Below, in pieces: positions 1,366-48,694 of a DNA stretch of 57,909 nucleotides. The stretch's first letter is position 1. Each line of letters opens with the position of its first letter. A model generated the notes under the pieces. It was not told the origin of the DNA. It did no database searches and worked only from the letters and a program-made list of their open reading frames with translations. The stretch is from Candidatus Kaiserbacteria bacterium (GTDB taxonomy: Bacteria; Patescibacteriota; Minisyncoccia; Phycocordibacterales; UBA918), in NCBI GenBank assembly GCA_043729945.1, contig JAYTKW010000022.1, forward strand, positions 1 to 57,909, in the 5' to 3' direction. The position numbers and the translations under genes were made by a program.

Positions 1366-1436
1366 GCGGGTGTGGTTTAGTGGTAAAACGTCAGCCTTCC
1401 AAGCTGAATATCAGGGTTCGATTCCCTGCACCCGCA
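1366..1436 (+). tRNA. tRNA-Gly (anticodon UCC)
   Basis: 71-nt cloverleaf read by eye. Acceptor is GCGGGTG/CACCCGC and the D stem is GTTT/AAAC. The anticodon arm is TCAGC-CTTCCAA-GCTGA and the T arm is CAGGG-TTCGATT-CCCTG. CCA is not encoded. Confidence 0.9.
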
Positions 1437-1444
1437 CTGTTCAA

Positions 1445-1480
1445 TAAAATAACCACCCTGAAAGGGGTGGTTATTTTATT
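1445..1480 (+). terminator. Hairpin plus T-run after tRNA-Gly
   Basis: AAAATAACCACCC-TGAAA-GGGGTGGTTATTTT. Confidence 0.6.
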
Positions 1481-1486
1481 GGTACA

Positions 1487-1622
1487 GTGCGGAGTGCAGC
1501 AACCTGCTAGTAGCAGGTTGCGCAGGGAATCGAAGCCCGATTGAGCTGGATTGGAAGCGCAGCGCACCAATCCAGCCAATTGGGGTACTGAAGTCGTAGA
1601 CTTCGATTCCCTGCACCCGCCC
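1487..1622 (+). other. Structured element E1 ending in an exact 19-nt copy of the tRNA-Gly 3' end (candidate ncRNA, att-like site or MITE)
   Basis: 1602-1620 is identical to 1417-1435 (TTCGATTCCCTGCACCCGC). 1522-1535 (GCAGGGAATCGAAG) is the reverse complement of 1601-1614. It contains a 9-bp hairpin (1499-1521), a 10-bp hairpin (1545-1576) and a 6-bp hairpin (1590-1604). Confidence 0.45.
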
Positions 1623-1681
1623 ATCAAATCTATTTCTACTCACCACTAACTTGGGCTGGATTTTTTGGTATACTGCTCCAT

Positions 1682-2098
1682 ATGAAAACTGACTATATGG
1701 TAATTGGCAGAGTTCGTAATTCAACAAATATACTCAAGCTTGTAAAAAGTATAGAAGAAAATGGCTATAGTTGCTATAACTTTTTACATAAGCCAGTGAT
1801 AGCTGATAAAGCGGATCTATCATGGGAAGAACAAATGGAAATTCTCGAATCGCACACTGATTTTTGGAACGATCCAATCCATCGACATCATTTTGAAAAA
1901 GATATGGAAGGCTTAGCAAACGCCGATACCGTCGTTATGCTCCTGCCGTGTGGTAAAGCTGCTCATATGGAAGCTGGAGTTGCCTTTGGTTTAAAAAAGA
2001 GAATGGTTTTAATTGGCGAGGTTGAAAAGCCAGAAACCCTGTACCTTATGTTTACAGAACATTATCCAGATATAGAATCATTTTTGTTACGTATTTAA
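1682..2098 (+). CDS. Nucleoside 2-deoxyribosyltransferase-like (Rossmann-like) protein
   Basis: 138-aa ORF in AT-rich DNA. The C-terminal pattern ADTVVMLLPCGKAAHMEAGVAFGLKKRMVLIG resembles the NDT/Rcl family core. Recognised by eye only. Confidence 0.4.
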   Translation: MKTDYMVIGRVRNSTNILKLVKSIEENGYSCYNFLHKPVIADKADLSWEEQMEILESHTDFWNDPIHRHHFEKDMEGLANADTVVMLLPCGKAAHMEAGVAFGLKKRMVLIGEVEKPETLYLMFTEHYPDIESFLLRI

Positions 2099-2109
2099 AA
2101 CCGTTACTA

Positions 2110-2147
2110 ATATTGTAAGTAACTCGTGACCGATTCCCCGCATACGC
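2110..2147 (+). repeat. Partial copy of the 3' end of element E2
   Basis: ATATTGTAAGTAACTCGTGACCGATTCCCCGCATACGC aligns with ATATGCTTAGTAATTCGTGACCGATTCCTCTCACCCGC at 4100-4135, on the same strand. Confidence 0.6.
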
Positions 2148-2151
2148 GAAA

Positions 2152-2190
2152 GCCCGAACACAAAAGGAAGTGTTCGGGCAGGTTTTGCAA
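2152..2190 (+). terminator. Hairpin after the 1682-2098 gene
   Basis: GCCCGAACAC-N8-GTGTTCGGGC followed by a T-containing tail. Confidence 0.5.
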
Positions 2191-2261
2191 TAATTGTAAT
2201 CCATTATCCCACAAACATACGAGCAAAAACGGGCTACATCAATGGCGTACAAGAAGTCGAA

Positions 2262-2627
2262 TCAGTTAGTTTTCATGGAACTTAAGGGCGCTATCTCTAC
2301 TGAGCCAGTTTTAGTATCAGTGTAAGTCACAACACATGCTTCATAAAAATCGTTATCATATGTCACGCCCATGACATTGTTCCATTTATCCTTTACACCA
2401 CTAGATAGTGATTCACATTCCGCTTGTTTGATTTTTAATTCAGATAGAGCGTTATCTTTTTCCTGTTGTTGTTCAAATAATACTTGCTTTTGTTTTAAAA
2501 TGGTATTTTCTGCTTCCTGTTGTTTTTCTATAGAAGCTCTCTTATCAATTTGAACAAAATAAAATGATACTGCTAAGACAATACATCCTAAAACTATTGA
2601 AACAGGTATAGTTAGTTTATCGTTCAT
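2262..2627 (-). CDS. Hypothetical membrane-anchored coiled-coil protein
   Basis: 121-aa ORF with an N-terminal TM helix (IPVSIVLGCIVLAVSFYFV) followed by a Q/E/K-rich helix. Confidence 0.55.
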   Translation of the reverse strand: MNDKLTIPVSIVLGCIVLAVSFYFVQIDKRASIEKQQEAENTILKQKQVLFEQQQEKDNALSELKIKQAECESLSSGVKDKWNNVMGVTYDNDFYEACVVTYTDTKTGSVEIAPLSSMKTN

Positions 2628-2808
2628 TAAATGATTCTAACATTATCATTTTACCTATCAAGCATGTTTAAACGATTTTCCTGAAAAATTGTCTGGTTTC
2701 TTTTGGAGCAGTACGTCAGTGACAGAGAGTAATTTTTTGAGATATTGATTCACAAAGAAAAAATATTAGACTTTAATAATAAAAGAATCAATTACAACGC
2801 ACCTGTGG

Positions 2809-2857
2809 TCTGTGGATATAGAATTACGGGGAATTCCCGTAATTCTATATCCACAGA
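2809..2857. repeat. 22-bp perfect inverted repeat
   Basis: TCTGTGGATATAGAATTACGGG-GAATT-CCCGTAATTCTATATCCACAGA, followed by TTTTTT. Confidence 0.85.
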
Positions 2858-2980
2858 CTTTTTTGTCAATAGTTGTTGATCTTTTGGTGAGAAAGTGTAT
2901 AATGCTAATTAAGTATTGGAACGAGCTAGCTCTTAGGCTCAATCCTTCACAAAGCCTTCCTTCGGGAAGGCTTTGCACGT

Positions 2981-3802
2981 CTAGGGATGAATGACACAAC
3001 TATTTTTTGTTGTTCCACCGCACTTCGCTTTAAAAGCTTTCTCTTTAAGTAGAGTAATTACATCCAAATCAAACTGGGTTACTCCACCATACCCTAAAGA
3101 CTCACTGATTCTTGCATCAATGCTAAGGAAGTGTGAAGCAATGTCTGCCAATTGCGTCTCAGTATCGAGATTATTTTTTGTAACAAATGATATTGCAGTT
3201 AAATGTTCTCTGACTTTATGTCTAGTTAAACCCATAGAAGAGACTCCACCAAACATAATTTTATTGTAAGCAGACAAAATATCTCCATCTTGGTTCTCGT
3301 CAGCAGCCTCAACAATAATTTTGCCAGAACTGCTTTTTTTCGAAGAGCTCGTCAAATAACATAAGTATATGCACCATAATTCTAAAAAAGTTTTCTTAGT
3401 AAGATTTTTTTCATGCTTTGTAATTGCTGTACTAAATCCATTTGTGACCACATGCTGTATAGGAGGATTATTTTTTAGATAGGTCAGTTTATTTGTACCT
3501 ACCCACAAAAGTTTGAAGGTCGAACGTCGGATCCACTCTTTGAAATCGGTACAAAATTCAGCGTACTTCGCTGGATCACTAGCAAAATGAGCAAAATCTC
3601 CCTTTAGTTGACGAATTTCAGTGGCATGGAAATTTACTTTGGTTGTACCCCAGTACTTAAATTTTATTTGATCCGCTCTCCGTTTAATAAAATCATCCAT
3701 ATTTTCATGGACGATTATCCCTGCTACAGCAAAATGGGGTGCGTAGGGTGTTATATGAGTTAATGTATTTTTGCCTGACTCATCAATGTAGAGCTTGAAC
3801 AT
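2981..3802 (-). CDS. DUF3800-like protein
   Basis: 273-aa ORF. The N-terminal YIDESG motif and overall layout are typical of DUF3800. The DNA is AT-rich. Confidence 0.6.
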   Translation of the reverse strand: MFKLYIDESGKNTLTHITPYAPHFAVAGIIVHENMDDFIKRRADQIKFKYWGTTKVNFHATEIRQLKGDFAHFASDPAKYAEFCTDFKEWIRRSTFKLLWVGTNKLTYLKNNPPIQHVVTNGFSTAITKHEKNLTKKTFLELWCIYLCYLTSSSKKSSSGKIIVEAADENQDGDILSAYNKIMFGGVSSMGLTRHKVREHLTAISFVTKNNLDTETQLADIASHFLSIDARISESLGYGGVTQFDLDVITLLKEKAFKAKCGGTTKNSCVIHP

Positions 3803-3961
3803 TGATTACAATAGTAGCATTGTATTATGTACATGTAAAAATATGCTAATCAAACAGTGGAAGTTCCATCAGTGTGTAAAAAAGTTCTAACGTTGACCCA
3901 TAGCCCCGCACACATATGTTTCCGAAAAAGCCCTTTAAGGGGCTTTTTCGTTCGAAACATA

Positions 3962-4139
3962 GTGTACGGGTGAAGCAAGGTGCCTGCGCACCTTGCGGGA
4001 GGAATCGAAAGGCACAGGCATGTTTTAGCTCTTCCTAGAGCTAAAACAGCCGAGCCGGGGTCGAGGACACTTAGTAGATTATGAGCGGAGCGAACAAATA
4101 TGCTTAGTAATTCGTGACCGATTCCTCTCACCCGCACCA
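3962..4139 (+). other. Structured element E2 with the same architecture as E1, ending in a tRNA-like 3' end with CCA
   Basis: The 3' strand CGATTCCTC+TCACCCG (4119-4134) pairs with GAGGAATCG (3999-4007) and CGGGTGA (3967-3973). A 9-bp hairpin (3975-3996) sits at the same junction as in E1. There is an inner 11-bp hairpin at 4022-4047. The element ends CACCCGCACCA. Confidence 0.45.
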
Positions 4140-4281
4140 ATCGAGGTGATCAGGCAATTTTTCTACCGCATTAAACGGTTTACGTATTGAAAAATAAGCT
4201 TTTTCGACTTCAACTTCCAAGTTCTGAAATAGGTTTTTACGATTTCACGTTTTCGTAGCGTATCAGAAATTTCAGACTGGC

Positions 4282-5604
4282 TTATTGCTGTTTGGTCTGT
4301 GGGACTGTTGCATATGACATGGTAAGGAATGATTCTATTGCAGTGGAAAAATTTAATGTGACCACATCATCTTGTTGGGCAGGGTTTTGTAGAATGATGG
4401 TTTGGTTTTGTTGATCAATACCAATCATTGCGTACGCATGTTCACCCAAGAGTGCGCGTTCATTGCCTTCAAAGTCTACTACTGGATAGAACATTGGACT
4501 TGGATTGTTTAGAACTGATTGTTCTGATCTGGTTAATTCAGCTACAGCTGCTTTTTTCCTGAGTGCTGAGACGAATTGTATGGATTGATGAGATCCAAAG
4601 GTCACTATCGTTCTTTCGGGATCAAGATTTGATAAATATTCCCAAGCCGTATCCTTATGTTCAAAAAGAAATGTGCTTTCGACCATTTCTTTACCGAGCA
4701 ATGCTCCTATAACCTCTACAGATTCGCCACCTGTAGCGTTTTTCAATTCTGTAAATCGTCTTGGACCCAGCTCCATGTCATCATGAAAAAACCCAGTAGA
4801 CACACGCTCTAGGTATTCATTGAATGCCACCTCCAGGATAGTGTTTCCAAGATTGTTAGTCCGGGCAATCTTACCAGCTGCAGCGTAGCGAAGAATATCA
4901 TGTGTAGTAACATCTATATTTTCTGGTAAACCTGGAAAATTAACTTCAAACACACCGGATTGAACTTCGTTCACCATCGATCCGAGGACTTCTTTTGCTA
5001 ACCCAGGTTTACTTTGTAGGCTTAGCAATGTTGCTACCCAATAGCAGTTACCCCTACGTTGTTCAATCTCAAGATCTTCAACTGGGTTTTTAAAGAGAGC
5101 TGTATACATTTCGTCCGCAGTTAAGTTGCCACCTTCTGATCCTTTCTCAGATGAGATATGTGTCTTTGATAATTCTGGTGTTTGCGCTACTTGTTTGTTG
5201 AAGTGAATTCGAAGTTTTAGTAAGTCTTTATGCGCTTGTATATACTGCTCTTTGATTCGTTCGTATTTTTTACGCTTTTGTAACTCGAACGATATTCGCT
5301 CGACAAAACCCAAAACTCCAGTTGATTCAATTCGATATTCTTGCAAAAGATTACGGTAATAATCTAAATCAGCCACCCGCTCAGTAATTGAGTCAATAAT
5401 GGGTTGTAATACTTTGACATGCTCGGCATGCTTCTCTATCTGACTTAGTTCTTCTGGGTAAATGTTTCCGTAGAAGTAGCTCGCAAGTATTTCAGACAGA
5501 AACTTATGGTCACCAATTTGTTTTTCAGGATTGACCTCAGCATCAATAACGGCCACCATTTTTTCATGCGAAGATTTCCATATTGATGCGCCTTCTGCTT
5601 TCAT
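4282..5604 (-). CDS. Coiled-coil protein with a C-terminal calpain/papain-like cysteine protease domain
   Basis: 440-aa ORF. QRRGNCYWVATLLS resembles the calpain Cys motif GDCWLLAA, GEHAYAMIG resembles GHAYS, and LQNP resembles the Asn motif. Confidence 0.4.
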   Translation of the reverse strand: MKAEGASIWKSSHEKMVAVIDAEVNPEKQIGDHKFLSEILASYFYGNIYPEELSQIEKHAEHVKVLQPIIDSITERVADLDYYRNLLQEYRIESTGVLGFVERISFELQKRKKYERIKEQYIQAHKDLLKLRIHFNKQVAQTPELSKTHISSEKGSEGGNLTADEMYTALFKNPVEDLEIEQRRGNCYWVATLLSLQSKPGLAKEVLGSMVNEVQSGVFEVNFPGLPENIDVTTHDILRYAAAGKIARTNNLGNTILEVAFNEYLERVSTGFFHDDMELGPRRFTELKNATGGESVEVIGALLGKEMVESTFLFEHKDTAWEYLSNLDPERTIVTFGSHQSIQFVSALRKKAAVAELTRSEQSVLNNPSPMFYPVVDFEGNERALLGEHAYAMIGIDQQNQTIILQNPAQQDDVVTLNFSTAIESFLTMSYATVPQTKQQ

Positions 5605-5910
5605 GCAGTAAGTATATCATTTTCAGTAGTTGTAGAATCAAGTAAACGCCAATTAATAGTTCTAAATTCATCGAGTTTCTACATAGTCAATATGAAAAAC
5701 TGTCCCTAGGGACGTATTTCTGTTTTAATTGAAGATTCACAAAAATCATGTGACATATTTACACAGTTGGGTGGCACTGCGTTACACGTTACTCTCGAGA
5801 ACCCCACTACATATTACTTGCAGAATCTGGTTGACAAAATTCAATAGTTGCAAAATCACTGAGTAGTAACACTTGGATTGCTTCGTACCTCGCAATGACG
5901 TAGAGTTATC

Positions 5911-7398
5911 TTGTTTTCTATGAAAACCATCACCCTTAAAAACGTTAGTAAATCACTGGCACAAAAGACGTTATTTAGTGGTGCGTCGCTTTCGATCGGG
6001 CAGCGTGATCGGGTGGCAATTATTGGGAATAACGGGGCTGGGAAAAGTACTCTACTCAAAATCATGGCAGGTATTGAATCGGTTGATGAAGGAGAAGTGT
6101 TGGGTAATCAGTCCGTTGCCTACATTGCCCAAGAATTTGGTGGGGATATGTCCCGAACGGTAGCCGAGTATCTGGCAGCGCAAAAGGTAGTTGCCAATAT
6201 ACATGCGATTATCAAAAAGTTTGGCATCATCAGTCCGCAATTGATGGAACAGGGAACGTTGTCTGAACTCTCGGGTGGGCAGTTGCGGGCTCTCGAAATC
6301 GCCGCAGTTATATCGCGCGGGCCGATGTTTCTCTGTATTGATGAACCGGAAAACCATCTCGATATTAAAGCCCGGCACGTTGTCACTGAATTACTGCGGG
6401 ATTATTGGGGGGCGGTCATTATGGTCTCTCATGATCATACGCTGATAAATAACCTGACCAAGAAAATAGTTTTGATTGAACACGAGGCGGTGACAGTTAC
6501 AACGGATCTGACCTACGAGGAGCTCGTTGAGGAGCGACTGCGGCGGCAAGATCTGGCACAGCATGAGTATCTGATGGCCAAACGGAAACTAACAAAAATG
6601 ACGAATCTCGTCACCGAGTTACGAAGGCAAACCACCTTTAGTGACAGTAAAGCCAAAACCTACCAAATGAAAAAGCGTCAGCTGGCGGTGGATCAGGAAG
6701 CTATTGATACAATGGTGAGGCCGGATACTCGAAAGCCCGAAGTTCGCATCGGGGACGTCGAGCAAAAGAACGGGAAACTCATTGTGCAGTTACATGACGT
6801 CAGTGGTGGCTACGGCGCCACGCCGCTGTTTTCAAAAGTAAACCTAGATATTCGGTTTGGGCAGAAACTCTGTATTGTAGGGCGTAATGGCGCCGGCAAG
6901 ACGACACTCCTCGGGCTCATTACGGGAGCGGTGGCTCCATTGTCTGGAGTAGTCCGCAGGGGAGTGTCTATTACGACCGTAGTATTTAGCCAACAGAGTG
7001 AAATGATACTCGAACATACGCCGTTTGAGTTGTTTGCCACTATTGGGATTTCCAAAGACCCGGCCCGATCAATCCTCAGTCGACTCTTATTTTCCAAAGC
7101 AGAAATGGATATGATTGCTGAACGCTTATCGGGGGGTCAAAAGCAACGACTCCGTTTGGCGCTACTGTTTTTTGCGAAACCGGATTTTATTATTTTGGAT
7201 GAACCAACGAATAATCTCGATCCAATCAATTGGCAGTTTCTAGTTGAGCTCCTGACGGAGTTCGAGGGGACAGTCATCTGTGTGACCCATGATCAGTCGT
7301 TTATCGAGTCGATTGATGAGTTACTGATTTTTGTGCTCGCAAAAAAGACGGTCACACGCGTATGGGGTACGGTCGACGAGGCGATTGCTCTATTATAG
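5911..7398 (+). CDS. ABC-F family ATPase (two ABC domains, no TM domain)
   Basis: Walker A GNNGAGKST and GRNGAGKTT; signatures LSGGQ (twice); Walker B IDEPENHLD and ILDEPTNNLD. Confidence 0.85.
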   Translation: MFSMKTITLKNVSKSLAQKTLFSGASLSIGQRDRVAIIGNNGAGKSTLLKIMAGIESVDEGEVLGNQSVAYIAQEFGGDMSRTVAEYLAAQKVVANIHAIIKKFGIISPQLMEQGTLSELSGGQLRALEIAAVISRGPMFLCIDEPENHLDIKARHVVTELLRDYWGAVIMVSHDHTLINNLTKKIVLIEHEAVTVTTDLTYEELVEERLRRQDLAQHEYLMAKRKLTKMTNLVTELRRQTTFSDSKAKTYQMKKRQLAVDQEAIDTMVRPDTRKPEVRIGDVEQKNGKLIVQLHDVSGGYGATPLFSKVNLDIRFGQKLCIVGRNGAGKTTLLGLITGAVAPLSGVVRRGVSITTVVFSQQSEMILEHTPFELFATIGISKDPARSILSRLLFSKAEMDMIAERLSGGQKQRLRLALLFFAKPDFIILDEPTNNLDPINWQFLVELLTEFEGTVICVTHDQSFIESIDELLIFVLAKKTVTRVWGTVDEAIALL

Positions 7399-7401
7399 AA
7401 T

Positions 7402-8469
7402 TTATAAAAAAGCTACGTCTAACAGTGCTTCTTTGACCTTGTTAAAAGCACCCGCATCCATTGGTCGGTGGGGGTAGATTCTGTTAGAGAGGATAGCAAA
7501 TCCCCTATGATTTTTTAGGTCAGCTGACATAAAACAGCCTGTAAAGCCGCTCTTTACCACCATCTCTCTATGGTACGTATCTATTAAGATATTATTCAAA
7601 TCCCCCCATCCAATAGGTGTATGGGTTGGCAAAAGTTTTGGGTAATAGTCCTCGGTCCATTTTGAAACAATAGTGCTGCTAAAGATTGGTTTTTTATTGT
7701 ATTCACCGCCGTGCAAGGCTACTTTCAAGAATTGAGTTATATCATTTATTGAAGCAAATAAACCAGCGGCCCCATTTGAAATCCCTCCCTTAGTGGTATA
7801 GAAAGTGAATTCATCATGTACAAAGCCCCTCACCTCACCGCGATCGTTCGTCAGTTCAGTAGGTGGTATTAAGGACTTGGTTTTTGATGAGGGAAAAAAT
7901 GTAGCCGTGGACATTTCAAGTGGGGTAAACACATAGTCTTTCACTAGAGTATAAAAATTTTCACTTGTAACACGTTCTATTATTTGAGTAAGTATAAAAG
8001 CCGTAATATTAGAATACATGTAGTTCGTACCCGGCAAGGCTTTTAAAGGGTATGACAAAGCATTGTGAGCAACTTGTTCAGGCGAGAGAGTCCCAAACAA
8101 AGATTTAGAGCCACCAGGAATGTTGTAGTCCATCGTATACGTCATAAGATGTGATAATAACGCCTCCCCTTTTTCTGGTTGGTTTACGAATTCAGGTAAA
8201 TACTTACTTATTTTCTCATCTAAATTTAAGATACCTTTATCTATTAAAATCATAGCAACCGCCATTGGGGCTATAATTTTAGTCAGAGATGCGCAGTCGT
8301 ATATCGTTGAAGTATGGACCTGGCTAGCATTGAGTTCATATGTAAAATGACCATAACCTTGGGAAAAGCAAGTGTCTTCGTTTAGAAATACAATTGAACA
8401 TCCAGGGAATACCTTCGAAGCGATAGCGGTTTCAATTATTGCTTCAAATTGTTTTATTTTGCTAGGCAT
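7402..8469 (-). CDS. Serine hydrolase of the class C beta-lactamase / PBP-like family
   Basis: 355-aa ORF with an SxxK motif (SLTK) and a YxN motif (YSN). The DNA is AT-rich. Confidence 0.7.
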   Translation of the reverse strand: MPSKIKQFEAIIETAIASKVFPGCSIVFLNEDTCFSQGYGHFTYELNASQVHTSTIYDCASLTKIIAPMAVAMILIDKGILNLDEKISKYLPEFVNQPEKGEALLSHLMTYTMDYNIPGGSKSLFGTLSPEQVAHNALSYPLKALPGTNYMYSNITAFILTQIIERVTSENFYTLVKDYVFTPLEMSTATFFPSSKTKSLIPPTELTNDRGEVRGFVHDEFTFYTTKGGISNGAAGLFASINDITQFLKVALHGGEYNKKPIFSSTIVSKWTEDYYPKLLPTHTPIGWGDLNNILIDTYHREMVVKSGFTGCFMSADLKNHRGFAILSNRIYPHRPMDAGAFNKVKEALLDVAFL

Positions 8470-8698
8470 AGGAATATTTTACCTCACATTTGAAATATTC
8501 AGCATTTTTATAACTTTACATAGTTTGTGGCGTCTCTTAAAAAGCAAAACACCCCGGCTGAGGAGTGTCTTACTTTGTGATGGGAAATAGCGAAGATTAC
8601 TCTCTGATTTCCACATAGCGTTTTACCTCCGCTACCATATTATTATACCACGAGGTGCTGGAAATTAAGTGTGGAAAAACATTATCTGGCGGCAAAAG

Positions 8699-8732
8699 AA
8701 AACAACTGTGGGCCAAAGCCCACAGTTGTTTT
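8699..8732 (-). terminator. Terminator downstream of hup
   Basis: AACAACTGTGGGC-CAAA-GCCCACAGTTGTT with a T-run on the minus strand. Confidence 0.7.
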
Positions 8733-28940: not shown

Positions 28941-29230
28941 ACTTCCATAAACGGCGAACTTCGTCGTTGCCCGTCGGTAAAATACTCCTCACCGTGAGAA
29001 AGTCTGGGAGACTTTCGCAAGAGGTTGTCGCTCTTTTGAAAAAAAGAGCGACAACCTGAACAGCTTCTGTAAGAAGCGGAAAGTACGGCTCGTTCTATTT
29101 TCCTTTCTCCTCTGACAGCGGCTGTACACCTTGTCACTTATTTGTTTCGGTATTTACCTCACAAATAAGTAGGCAAGGTCTTGCGGAAGCTAGTCGCTTC
29201 CTCACTCGAATTTCACTCATTTCTGAAAGT
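28941..29230. mobile_element. MITE-like element copy carrying a nested second repeat type inside its central loop
   Basis: The termini (ACTTCCATAAACGGCGAAC / TTTCACTCATTTCTGAAAGT) match those of 25425-25541. The core CTCACCGT...GTACGGCTC is split by about 90 nt that is homologous to 47936-48030. Confidence 0.6.
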
Positions 29231-47866: not shown

Positions 47867-47893
47867 TTGCCGTACTCATACGTAGTAGTAAGT

Positions 47894-47935
47894 ATGACAA
47901 AAACAGCTATTTTCGCAGGAGGATGTTTCTGGGGT
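47894..47935 (+). repeat. Exact 42-nt duplicate of the msrA start (ATG plus 13 codons), running into a stop after 16 codons
   Basis: Identical to 48048-48089. Reads MTKTAIFAGGCFWGEQ*. Confidence 0.9.
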
Positions 47936-48047
47936 GAGCAGTGACTAAATGTCACTGCGCAAGAGGTTACCAGCTCGTTTGAAAAACGAGCGATAACCTG
48001 AACAGGTTCTGTAAGAACTGGAAGAGCTTGTAATGCAATAAAAATCT
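47936..48047. repeat. 112-nt repeat-type insert (same family as the nested segment at about 28995-29090)
   Basis: CGCAAGAGGTT..hairpin..AACCTGAACAGGTTCTGTAAGAACTGGAAG aligns with CGCAAGAGGTT..AACCTGAACAGCTTCTGTAAGAAGCGGAAAG. Confidence 0.7.
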
Positions 48048-48539
48048 ATGACAAAAACAGCTATTTTCGCAGGAGGATGTTTCTGGGGTATGGAAGACCT
48101 CTTTCGGGATCTCCATCCCGGCATCCTAACTACCGAAACGGGTTACACCGGTGGTACCAATGAAAACCCTACCTACGAAAATCATCCCGGCCATGCCGAA
48201 GCATTACTGGTGGAGTATGATGATGCAAAAATTGCGTACACAGAATTACTAGATTTCTTTTTCCGAGTGCATAATCCCACCACCCTTAATCAGCAAGGAA
48301 ACGACCTGGGCACGGCTTATCGTTCAGCGATTTTTTATCAAGATGAAAGCGAACGCGTAGCCGCTGAATTATTTATTGATCTGGTAAATGAATCAGCTCG
48401 TTGGGAGGCTCCTGTAGTCACCACGCTCGAACCGTTCACTAGATTCTGGTCAGCCGAAGACTATCACCAAGATTATTTACAAAAGAATCCACATGGATAT
48501 ACCTGCCACGCAATTCGATTTGAGAGCTATTTAGTGTAA
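48048..48539 (+). CDS. msrA: Peptide methionine (S)-sulfoxide reductase
   Basis: GGCFWG active-site motif; 163 aa. Confidence 0.9.
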   Translation: MTKTAIFAGGCFWGMEDLFRDLHPGILTTETGYTGGTNENPTYENHPGHAEALLVEYDDAKIAYTELLDFFFRVHNPTTLNQQGNDLGTAYRSAIFYQDESERVAAELFIDLVNESARWEAPVVTTLEPFTRFWSAEDYHQDYLQKNPHGYTCHAIRFESYLV

Positions 48540-48655
48540 TTTTGGAGTATAGGGATGGCTAAACCTTACAGGTTCTGTCCACTCATTGGACTTTTTATCT
48601 CGCTTCGCTCATAAAAATCCTCAATGAGTCTTGCGAAATGCTCCCAGCATTTCTC

Positions 48656-48694
48656 ACCTGCCATGCCATCAGGTTTGATAGTTATTTAACCTAA
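48656..48694 (+). pseudogene. Diverged duplicate of the last 12 codons of msrA plus the stop
   Basis: TCHAIRFDSYLT* versus TCHAIRFESYLV* at 48501-48539. 29/39 nt are identical, and most differences are at third codon positions. Confidence 0.75.

Follow-up and report, generated by a model that had tools for sequence, protein, structure and literature searches.

A three-hairpin element behind tRNA-Gly(UCC) in a Candidatus Kaiserbacteria contig, candidate member of an undescribed family of miniature integrative elements

Introduction

The genomes of CPR/Patescibacteria are tiny and, to our knowledge, few mobile elements have been described from them. In a 57,909-nt contig of a Candidatus Kaiserbacteria bacterium (JAYTKW010000022.1; the whole stretch that was analyzed is referred to here as the window), a segment of about 135 nt downstream of tRNA-Gly(UCC) has a copy of the tRNA 3′ end at its own 3′ side and the complement of that copy at its 5′ side. 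A preliminary description of this segment, termed E1, offered three options, i.e., a structured non-coding RNA, a folded single-strand recombination site or a tRNA-mimicking MITE. The locus raises the question of what sort of element carries both strands of its neighbor's end, and how it came to lie there. The contig is chromosomal and belongs to Parcubacteria/Patescibacteria; the S1-type protease encoded next to tRNA-Gly has named homologs in that group, and the window encodes housekeeping proteins (RNase Y, trigger factor, ClpP, NusA, S12/S7, pgk) as well as ComEC with type IV pilus genes.

Results

Anatomy and fold of E1

The features of the locus are as follows.

1366-1437, + strand: tRNA-Gly(UCC) gene (ARAGORN; Rfam tRNA model, 78 bits)
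1417-1435, + strand: proximal repeat copy O, the last 19 nt of tRNA-Gly(UCC)
1438-1486, no strand assigned: module T, a perfect 17-bp palindromic terminator-like hairpin (1442-1458 / 1465-1481)
1487-1622, + strand: E1, the element under study (covariance-model score of 153 bits, folds, covariation)
1487-1535, + strand: O′, inverted copy of the tRNA 3′ end (inverted-repeat pairs)
1602-1620, + strand: distal direct copy O (T-loop, T-stem 3′ strand and acceptor 3′ strand of the tRNA)

The tRNA gene is intact and encodes no CCA. From 5′ to 3′, E1 consists of O′a (1487-1498), hp1 (1499-1521, about 10 bp), O′b (1522-1535), hp2 (1536-1585, which includes a 10-bp stem, GCTGGATTGG / CCAATCCAGC), an invariant unpaired GTACTG (1585-1590), hp3 (1590-1604, 6 bp) and the distal O (1602-1620). 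Every feature of E1 in the preliminary description was found where it had been placed, and the anatomy proposed there, a closing helix of the tRNA 3′ end and its complement with three internal hairpins, was correct. The distal copy is an exact 19-nt match to tRNA-Gly(UCC), as had been noted: TTCGATTCCCTGCACCCGC occurs only at 1417-1435 and 1602-1620 (chance expectation 0.01; two matches in none of 100 shuffles). The upstream complements, GCGGAGTG (1489-1496) and GCAGGGAATCGAAG (1522-1535), do pair with this second copy, and the 14-nt arm pair 1522-1535 / 1601-1614 is 100% complementary. O′ is split by hp1 at the point where its acceptor and T-stem parts meet, and it has one base more (A1493) than a perfect complement. 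The palindrome of T extends beyond both its ends, into the tRNA 3′ end and into the 5′ arm of E1, and O, T and O′a form one large palindrome across the terminator (1442-1481) that includes the genuine tRNA 3′ end. This palindrome of the inverted copy with the genuine tRNA end had been missed in the earlier account.

In keeping with the multi-hairpin structure first proposed, both strands of E1 folded far better than their shuffles as RNA (+ strand, MFE of -79.3 kcal/mol, z of -9.2; - strand, -77.1 kcal/mol, z of -8.4), as did E1 as DNA (MFE of -50.5, z of -10.8); no shuffle matched the fold energy of E1 in any of the three settings. E1 does not fold as a canonical tRNA on either strand, as had been said: ARAGORN and the Rfam tRNA and tmRNA models called no tRNA, tmRNA or permuted tRNA on either strand of E1, and this reading was rejected, the sole call being the genuine tRNA at 1366-1437. 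Rfam 15, applied to the whole window at the gathering threshold, gave no match to E1, and scans by E-value, run on E1 and on the armless copies described below, returned sub-threshold noise only. A keyword search of the literature likewise found no description of such elements in Patescibacteria. With respect to Rfam and the literature searched, the E1 family matches no described family, RNA or otherwise.

Family members in the window

A covariance model found 24 E1-related copies, six of them in the window (about one copy per 10 kb). Members of the family are about 100-135 nt long, non-coding and modular. The further units and cores in the window are listed below.

2108-2147, + strand: truncated M2-type 3′ end, …gtaagtaactcgtgac followed by a degenerate tRNA-end copy, cgattccccgcatacgc
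3904-4139, + strand: second complete tRNA-armed unit (covariance-model matches of 42.6 and 58.9 bits; M2 alignment)
28984-29087, + strand: armless core downstream of pgk, in sense orientation (48.6 bits)
29098-29216, - strand: armless core downstream of a HIT-family gene, in sense orientation (69 bits)
About 47936-48046, + strand: core within the msrA 5′ site (47893-48089), after codon 14 of msrA
48550-48667, - strand: core at the msrA 3′ site (48516-48694), just past the msrA stop codon

The second complete unit (3904-4139) consists of ccccGCAC, a palindrome T2, O′a (gtacgggtgaag), a hairpin, O′b (gggaggaatcgaaa), M2 and a tRNA-end copy, cgattcctctcacccgcacca, which fits the tRNA-Gly of loci L003, L008 and L021 and not that of the window. 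The covariance models place this unit at 3963-4137 and the core of the msrA 5′ site at 47926-48029. M2 is a second unit type, a long hairpin with the junction …GTGAC/CGATTC…, and often follows the first type. The truncated unit at 2108-2147 closes a one-gene cassette (ORF 1682-2098). The four armless cores share the form hp1-CGCAAG-hp2-GAACAG-hp3, and the first two stand tail-to-tail between pgk and the HIT gene. Neither the unit at 3904-4139 nor the truncated one nor the four armless relatives appear in the preliminary description.

The arms follow the local tRNA

Orthologous loci were fetched by way of the flanking S1-type protease, and the hp1 sequence was used as query in one genome scan and one metagenome scan. 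The tRNA-T-E1 unit was recovered in many independent assemblies. It follows tRNA-Gly(UCC) in L003, L005, L018-L021, L027-L029 and L032-L035, tRNA-Gly(GCC) in L010, and tRNA-Glu(CUC) in L022 and L030/L031; on the L010 contig, the unit is also found behind two further tRNAs. The scan of the genome collection with the hp1 19-mer had one real match, L010, and the other seven were judged not to be E1-like (L016 is an ordinary terminator, and the rest have no adjoining tRNA-Gly or tRNA-Glu).

In every tRNA case, both arms reproduce the 3′ end of the local tRNA. The T-stem and acceptor sequence of the arms reads CCCTGCACCCGC in the window, CTTCTCACCCGC in L005, CCTCTCACCCGC in L021 and CTTCTCGCCCGC in L033 behind tRNA-Gly(UCC), CTCCCTGGCTGC behind tRNA-Gly(GCC) and CTCCGCGGGGTC behind tRNA-Glu. 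In L033 and L034, the tRNA, O′ and O change in concert, three-way. The split O′ with the same extra base (A or C) recurs in L005, L021, L025, L032, L033 and L034, and this base (GCGG-A-GTG) is kept in six lineages while the bases around it change with the tRNA. E1 of the L021 group ends at its 3′ side in CACCCGCACCA, which resembles a mature tRNA end, and in L034 a full core is nested within another unit. E1 holds the same position in genomes whose neighboring protease is only 61-70% identical, which argues for long residence or function and not for recent movement.

A conserved, covarying core

The interior is homologous in all tRNA-flanked units and comprises hp1, hp2 with its apex GAG…CGAA, the sequence GTACTG, which is unpaired and invariant, and hp3, whose loop contains GTA. 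Among the unpaired parts, GTACTG, a CUGUAAG loop and the hp2 apex are conserved. For nine units, RNAalifold gave 43 pairs, with compensatory changes in 23. When 24 copies were aligned to the model, 95% of cells were paired, both sides had changed in 36 of the 43 pairs, and the covariation score was 0.50 (shuffles, 0.13; slid partners, 0.06-0.09). These values are somewhat inflated because the alignment was fitted to the model. At one position, hp1 is represented by at least three unrelated sequences (AACCTGCTAGTAGCAGGTT, GGAAGTGCTTTGACGCACTTCC and CAAGGTGCCTGCGCACCTTG). The family thus has a three-hairpin core with conserved linkers, conserved loops and covarying stems; its pairing is conserved in relatives, and the structure of E1 is under constraint. 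The element-sense strand folds better than its complement by 2-8 kcal/mol in eight of nine units. G.T pairs outnumber A.C pairs (27 vs. 7), a strand bias that is weak evidence since the underlying alignment was fitted to the model and is biased by it.

Filled and empty sites at gene ends

The gene order GH15-msrA-Gmad2 is conserved in three relatives, and at either end of msrA a core is present in some genomes and missing from others. At the 5′ site, L043 is empty and has a 68-nt spacer that contains neither a core nor a duplication. In the window, L044 and L041, a core is inserted at one and the same nucleotide (after …TTCTGGGGT, codon 14); about 30 nt follow, and then the first 42 nt of the ORF are repeated. 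In the window, the direct repeats (47893-47935 and 48047-48089) are identical over 43 nt (one base in addition to the first 42 nt of the msrA ORF), and there is no inverted copy. The two copies show five differences in L044, and the segment is present threefold in L041. At the 3′ site, L041 and L044 have no core, whereas the window and L043 do; in the latter two, the duplication comprises the last ~24 nt of msrA with the stop codon. The two copies in the window (48516-48539 and a diverged one at 48671-48694) are identical at 17 of 24 positions, and the distal copy resembles orthologous gene ends, which fits a displaced original.

Similar duplications were found at tRNA genes. Those of tRNA ends measure 17-23 nt in L005, L021, L033 and L030. 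In L022, the core upstream of tRNA-Glu lies between 28-nt repeats of the 5′ part of the tRNA, with their boundary at the anticodon stem, and in L008 tRNA-Gly stands without any unit. The elements sit at the very ends of genes, namely in the T-loop or the anticodon stem of a tRNA and, in msrA, at codon 14 or in the last 24 nt. In these cases the gene remains intact, and its terminal 17-43 nt are repeated beyond the element. A regenerated target with a displaced fragment marks the ends of integrated elements, and an intact gene with its displaced terminal fragment past the insert is the signature of integrative elements (PMC4383910).

Dispersal, filled and empty orthologous sites, position at gene ends, and an intact gene with a duplicate end are all directly observed. 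With moderate confidence, we favor the reading that E1 is one copy of an undescribed Parcubacteria family of non-autonomous miniature integrative elements. Among the options first put forward for E1, a repeat or a recombination site was favored, since the family is dispersed and has filled and empty sites and gene-end duplications. The tRNA-mimicking MITE held as far as the repeat is concerned, but failed as a classical MITE, there being no fixed short duplication and, in the window and the fetched loci, no related transposase or autonomous IS with matching ends. What was called tRNA mimicry is more aptly regarded as a piece of the target gene that has been displaced, together with an internal complement of this piece, because the same family has msrA- or tRNA-Glu-derived flanks at other sites.

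The covarying stems and conserved loops and linkers would also be expected if the family consisted of functional structured RNAs, transcribed in the sense of the upstream gene as tRNA trailers or 3′-UTR elements. Such RNAs could protect the 3′ end, control processing or termination, or sequester or mimic the tRNA acceptor end, and the arms would follow the tRNA through the need to pair with it or imitate it. The better fold of the element-sense strand and the excess of G.T over A.C pairs agree with this, as do the sense orientation of four of the six window copies downstream of a gene, the pairing of O′a with the tRNA 3′ strand across T in a read-through transcript, and the resemblance of CACCCGCACCA to a mature tRNA end. 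However, E1 lies behind a strong terminator-like hairpin, a conserved promoter was looked for and not found, two of the six window copies are antisense or outside a UTR, and Rfam has no matching family. A role as RNA also gives no account of the 43-nt msrA duplication, the filled and empty sites or the cassette boundaries described below, and as a full explanation it is unlikely. REP elements are mobile and also transcribed, so a role as RNA is possible alongside the integrative reading and compatible with it.

Recombination and cassettes at tRNA-Gly

Copies of the tRNA end are found in the window at 1604, 2131 and 4119, in L034 at 1792 and 484 (the latter perfect), and also in L005, L032 and L003. 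These serial copies bound cassettes of one to three genes, and the genes between the unit and the conserved flank (HU, ABC-F) differ in every genome. A defense-island reading of the cargo genes was rejected, as PADLOC gave no specific match. Between the window and L005, identity is 98% in T and 85% in the tRNA; between the window and L021, the values are 92% and 80%, respectively. In both comparisons, the flanks are about 50% identical. L005 and L003 are 97% identical in the tRNA, 61% in T and 73% in E1. By these identities, T and E1 are modules that are exchanged independently of the tRNA. Two groups of genomes differ in the orientation of the entire tRNA-T-E1 block, which is inverted in relation to the protease and HU genes. 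Strain variants of one population differ by inversion or exchange at T, and also by a 1.2-kb cassette between repeated T-E1 units.

Other mobile DNA uses the same site. In L019, a 6.5-kb large-serine-recombinase (LSR) element flanked by GCACCA has been inserted precisely where E1 stops on its 3′ side; in L017, a related element has one end directly at the genuine tRNA/T junction. The LSR element is similar to E1 at neither end, and tblastn found no other LSR among the loci; E1 as an attP remnant of the L019 element was rejected on these grounds.

None of the searches pointed to an enzyme or a vehicle belonging to E1. No mobilizing enzyme was found among about 50 window ORFs (Pfam) or in two large unknown ORFs compared with PDB sequences; integrases, transposases, reverse transcriptases and HUH enzymes are absent from the window ORFs and from beside most copies, and no recombinase is encoded in 1438-8700 or elsewhere in the window. 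No free or circular form was seen. Comparison with phages and plasmids by blastn gave no match, and of two pattern scans of viral contigs, one had zero matches and the other five chance matches in coding sequence. A phage or plasmid origin was rejected, there being no real matches in viral contigs, phage genomes or plasmids.

The tRNA-end copies that delimit variable genes, and the use of the E1 site by a serine-recombinase element, could instead mean that E1 is a passive scar, made of att leftovers from island or prophage integrations at tRNA-Gly together with ordinary terminators and having no mobility of its own. The 3′ ends of tRNAs are classic integration sites, with a displaced tRNA fragment ending the island (PMC4383910), and tandem islands with 3′-end repeats are found at ssrA of Dehalococcoides (PMC3146451). 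A scar, however, would be expected to decay, whereas 36 of 43 pairs keep pairing via double changes and the one-base bulge is kept while its neighbors covary with the tRNA. The same core also occurs without tRNA arms at protein-gene ends, the LSR element ends are unlike E1, and ordinary att scars have no inverted core copy. We consider this explanation quite unlikely.

The long palindrome O-T-O′a, centered on the T loop, and the three-way concerted change in L033 and L034 would suit an origin of the arms as by-products of replication template switching (quasi-palindrome correction), provoked by the strong hairpins T and core. O′ would be made from the tRNA end and O from O′, and they would be homogenized without selection. 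The short closing stems of armless copies also use their flanks (CCCCAGGGT/ACCCTGGGG in L021; GATGGC/GCCATC at 48550-48667). Correction of this kind would nonetheless erase the extra base of O′a and the hairpin that splits O′; moreover, O′b does not belong to a flank but lies inside the core, between hp1 and hp2, the copy at the msrA 5′ site comes with a direct repeat and no inverted copy, and dispersal and empty sites are left unaccounted for. Template switching as the source of the arms is therefore improbable.

Lastly, stem-loop arrays of TIGR-Tas occur in CPR bacteria and have two spacers that pair with opposite DNA strands (bioRxiv 10.64898/2026.09.09.750476). E1 is complementary to both strands of the same target, yet the proposal that it encodes a guide RNA of the TIGR-Tas or IS110 bridge type, with arms that pair with both strands of the tRNA 3′ end, is largely refuted and extremely improbable: defining features are absent, with no Nop-domain or DEDD-recombinase gene in the window or beside any copy, box C in none of 24 copies and a box D-like CTGA in 10 of 24, a conserved interior with variable stems (the reverse of a spacer array), arms that are complementary to each other and would self-pair, and copies that are dispersed rather than arrayed by an effector gene.

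Discussion

How an integrative element could produce the locus

If E1 is an integrative element, the T plus E1 block (1438-1601, about 165 bp) would have inserted in the T-loop of tRNA-Gly(UCC); 1417-1437 would then be the regenerated tRNA end and 1602-1620 the displaced original one. The tRNA-end copies at 2131 and 4119 would mark later or earlier insertions carrying one to three genes each, and the serial copies with their cassettes point to the tRNA-Gly 3′ flank as an accretion site for units and other mobile DNA. In a folded single strand of the tRNA sense, the internal O′ would pair with the displaced O, and this pairing would recreate a duplex image of the target. Such a folded form might be recognized by a trans-acting recombinase or another mobilizing enzyme. 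By analogy with integron attC sites and the CTX-phage attP hairpin, the active form could be a folded single strand that rebuilds the target duplex; this is suggested by the inverted copy and its conserved bulge, by the strand bias and by the small cassettes that lack an integrase.

Several observations sit uneasily with the integrative reading that we favor. At least four unrelated targets are hard to fit with one site-specific recombinase. Even between genomes in which T is 98% identical, each set of arms fits its own tRNA, which calls for an extra assumption, namely selection for pairing or re-templating at insertion. There is also the lack of an enzyme, of a free form and of any phage or plasmid match, together with the long syntenic residence.

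A bolder version is that these are structure-defined, enzyme-less integrative elements that target gene extremities, carry a guide-like complement of the target and integrate by a host recombinase or by an RNA-templated route, with the arrays behind tRNA genes forming an integron-like platform without an integrase. We hold this version to be possible though rather unlikely. A folded strand would rebuild the duplex end of the target and a host recombinase would integrate it, the source being perhaps single-stranded DNA taken up by naturally competent CPR bacteria; as an alternative, integration could be RNA-templated.

Comparison with known systems

In behavior, the E1 family is closest to tRNA-targeting islands, reduced to about 165 bp around a hairpin core. 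Islands at tRNA and tmRNA genes (Islander-type islands, CIMEs, Dehalococcoides ssrA) share with E1 the insertion in the T-loop region, the regenerated gene, the displaced 17-23-nt 3′ fragment as a far direct repeat, and the serial repeats that bound cassettes. Among the marks of tRNA-targeting elements, the displaced-fragment repeat and presence/absence polymorphism were both found, and an internal integrase was not. Unlike such islands, the E1 "island" is about 165 bp long and non-coding, with an integrase neither in nor near E1, and it has an internal inverted copy of the target and a three-hairpin core that is also found at protein-gene ends.

The attC sites of integrons and attP of the CTX phage resemble E1 in being imperfect palindromes of about 60-140 nt with a conserved extrahelical base, in which structure is kept over sequence and folding would recreate the duplex site, and in their association with small integrase-less gene cassettes. 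In contrast to attC, neither strand of 1438-1640 matches R″ (RYYYAAC) or R′ (GTTRRRY), and E1 as an integron attC was rejected for want of these R-box cores. A tyrosine recombinase is absent from the window, so there is no attC array beside an intI. Unlike both attC and CTX attP, E1 comes with no IntI gene and no dif-like site, its copies are mostly dispersed, its arms derive from the target gene, and recombination as a single strand is for E1 a proposal.

REP/REPIN, BIME, NIME and MITE sequences are, like E1, short, multi-copy, intergenic, mosaic hairpin elements with filled and empty orthologous sites. E1 differs in its three hairpins with conserved linkers and its gene-end-specific duplications of 17-43 nt, and in that the gene is restored although the insertion falls within its end; neither a RAYT nor a transposase turned up, the 58-kb window containing no Y1 transposase. 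A classical MITE was rejected for its lack of a fixed short duplication and because the "terminal inverted repeat" is itself derived from the target.

LSR attB sites may lie within repeated host elements, as with phiRv1 in REP13E12, where the repeat provides several alternative places for attachment. The junctions in L019 and L017 are alike in that they use the tRNA end, its inverted image by T and the 3′ end of E1. The likeness goes no further, since use of E1 by an LSR leaves the origin and nature of E1 aside.

Significance and practical consequences

A family of this kind would be a major unannotated force in CPR genome plasticity, as it would insert without inactivating genes, track the tRNA and bound cassettes, with other mobile DNA landing on its copies. 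If the folded-strand model were true, E1 would be a third independent recombination site read as a hairpin, after attC and CTX-phage attP. In practical terms, the copies give rise to spurious ORFs and may be mistaken for tRNA pseudogenes. One such spurious ORF in the window (3850-4140) overlaps the unit at 3904-4139. In the metagenome scan, many family copies were located at contig ends, which suggests that the repeat may break metagenome assemblies.

Rearrangements and Insertions at the tRNA-T-E1 Block

When related loci from other assemblies were compared with the window, the entire block made up of tRNA-Gly(UCC), the terminator-like palindromic hairpin T and the three-hairpin element E1 was found in one orientation in one set of related genomes and in the opposite one in a second set, with the adjacent protease and HU genes as the reference. 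In two strain variants of one population (L017 2455-4265 and L028 400-2141), the segment lying between two copies of the palindromic T is inverted in one relative to the other, and what joins T on its far side differs as well. Taken together, the T-bounded inversion and the differing far-side sequence suggest recombination at or beside T.

Window 1366-1622, compared for inversion with L005 3648-3904 and L003 3561-3950: tRNA-T-E1 block
L019 641-7188, junctions at about 635 and 7189: insert of ~6.5 kb

The L019 insert carries the gene for a large serine recombinase of 371 aa with Resolvase, Recombinase and Zn_ribbon_recom domains. Its exact insertion point is the pseudo-tRNA 3′ end, the repeat of the tRNA-Gly 3′ end that closes E1, and GCACCA is present on both flanks. 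The sequence abutting the tRNA/T junction in L017 is homologous to the right end of this element. Separately, the variable regions adjoining tRNA-Glu/tRNA-Gly units contain an IS30-like transposase (HTH_38 and rve domains; L026 3775-4773) and an IS1595-like transposase fragment (L024 4451-4831).

Loop Sequences of the E1 Hairpins

On the tRNA-sense strand, the apex of hp2, the second hairpin of E1, often reads GCGNAGC (window 1555-1566 and the equivalent loops of other copies), and the loop of the third, hp3, reads (C/T)GTA(G/A) (window 1595-1599 and its equivalents). Both are GNA triloops; d(GCGAAGC) is a DNA mini-hairpin of unusually high stability.

Promoter-Like Boxes and Cassette Genes

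The sequence at window 1475-1490 (TTTATTGGTACAGTGC) is similar to that at 1661-1676 (TTTTTTGGTATACTGC), which looks like an extended -10 box a few bases 5′ of the ATG at 1682; if so, an mRNA starting from this ATG would be leaderless. In L032 and L033, comparable boxes (TGNTATACT) come immediately after the distal tRNA-end copy.

Window 2810-2856: perfect palindrome of ~47 nt (ctgtggatatagaattacggg gaattc ccgtaattctatatccacag), then a T run, within the first cassette region
Window 3850-4140, - strand: listed ORF of 96 aa, overlapping the second tRNA-armed unit almost completely

The 96-aa ORF had no Pfam match and is probably spurious. The displaced 5′ fragment of msrA (window 47894-47947) retains its original upstream region and start codon, and forms a 16-codon mini-ORF (MTKTAIFAGGCFWGEQ*) that reads into the hairpin element upstream of intact msrA, an arrangement resembling a leader peptide followed by hairpins.

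Conserved Segments Near the HU and tRNA-Gly Genes

Window 8540-8640; L005 about 3520-3600, - strand: segment adjoining the HU gene
L033 about 2810-2880; L034 about 2150-2230; L008 about 3790-3880: leader upstream of tRNA-Gly

The segment of ~70-100 nt adjoining the HU gene (…gtgatgggaaatagcgaagattactct…tttccacatagcgtttacctccgctacc…) is kept between genomes, whereas the surrounding intergenic DNA is not. It had no Rfam match and could be an unannotated small RNA. In genomes where the tRNA and protease genes are arranged divergently, a leader of ~100 nt is conserved upstream of tRNA-Gly and holds a mini-hairpin built from the tRNA's own acceptor stem (e.g., cacttGCGGGCGtaagaaaatctttCGCCCGC in L033).
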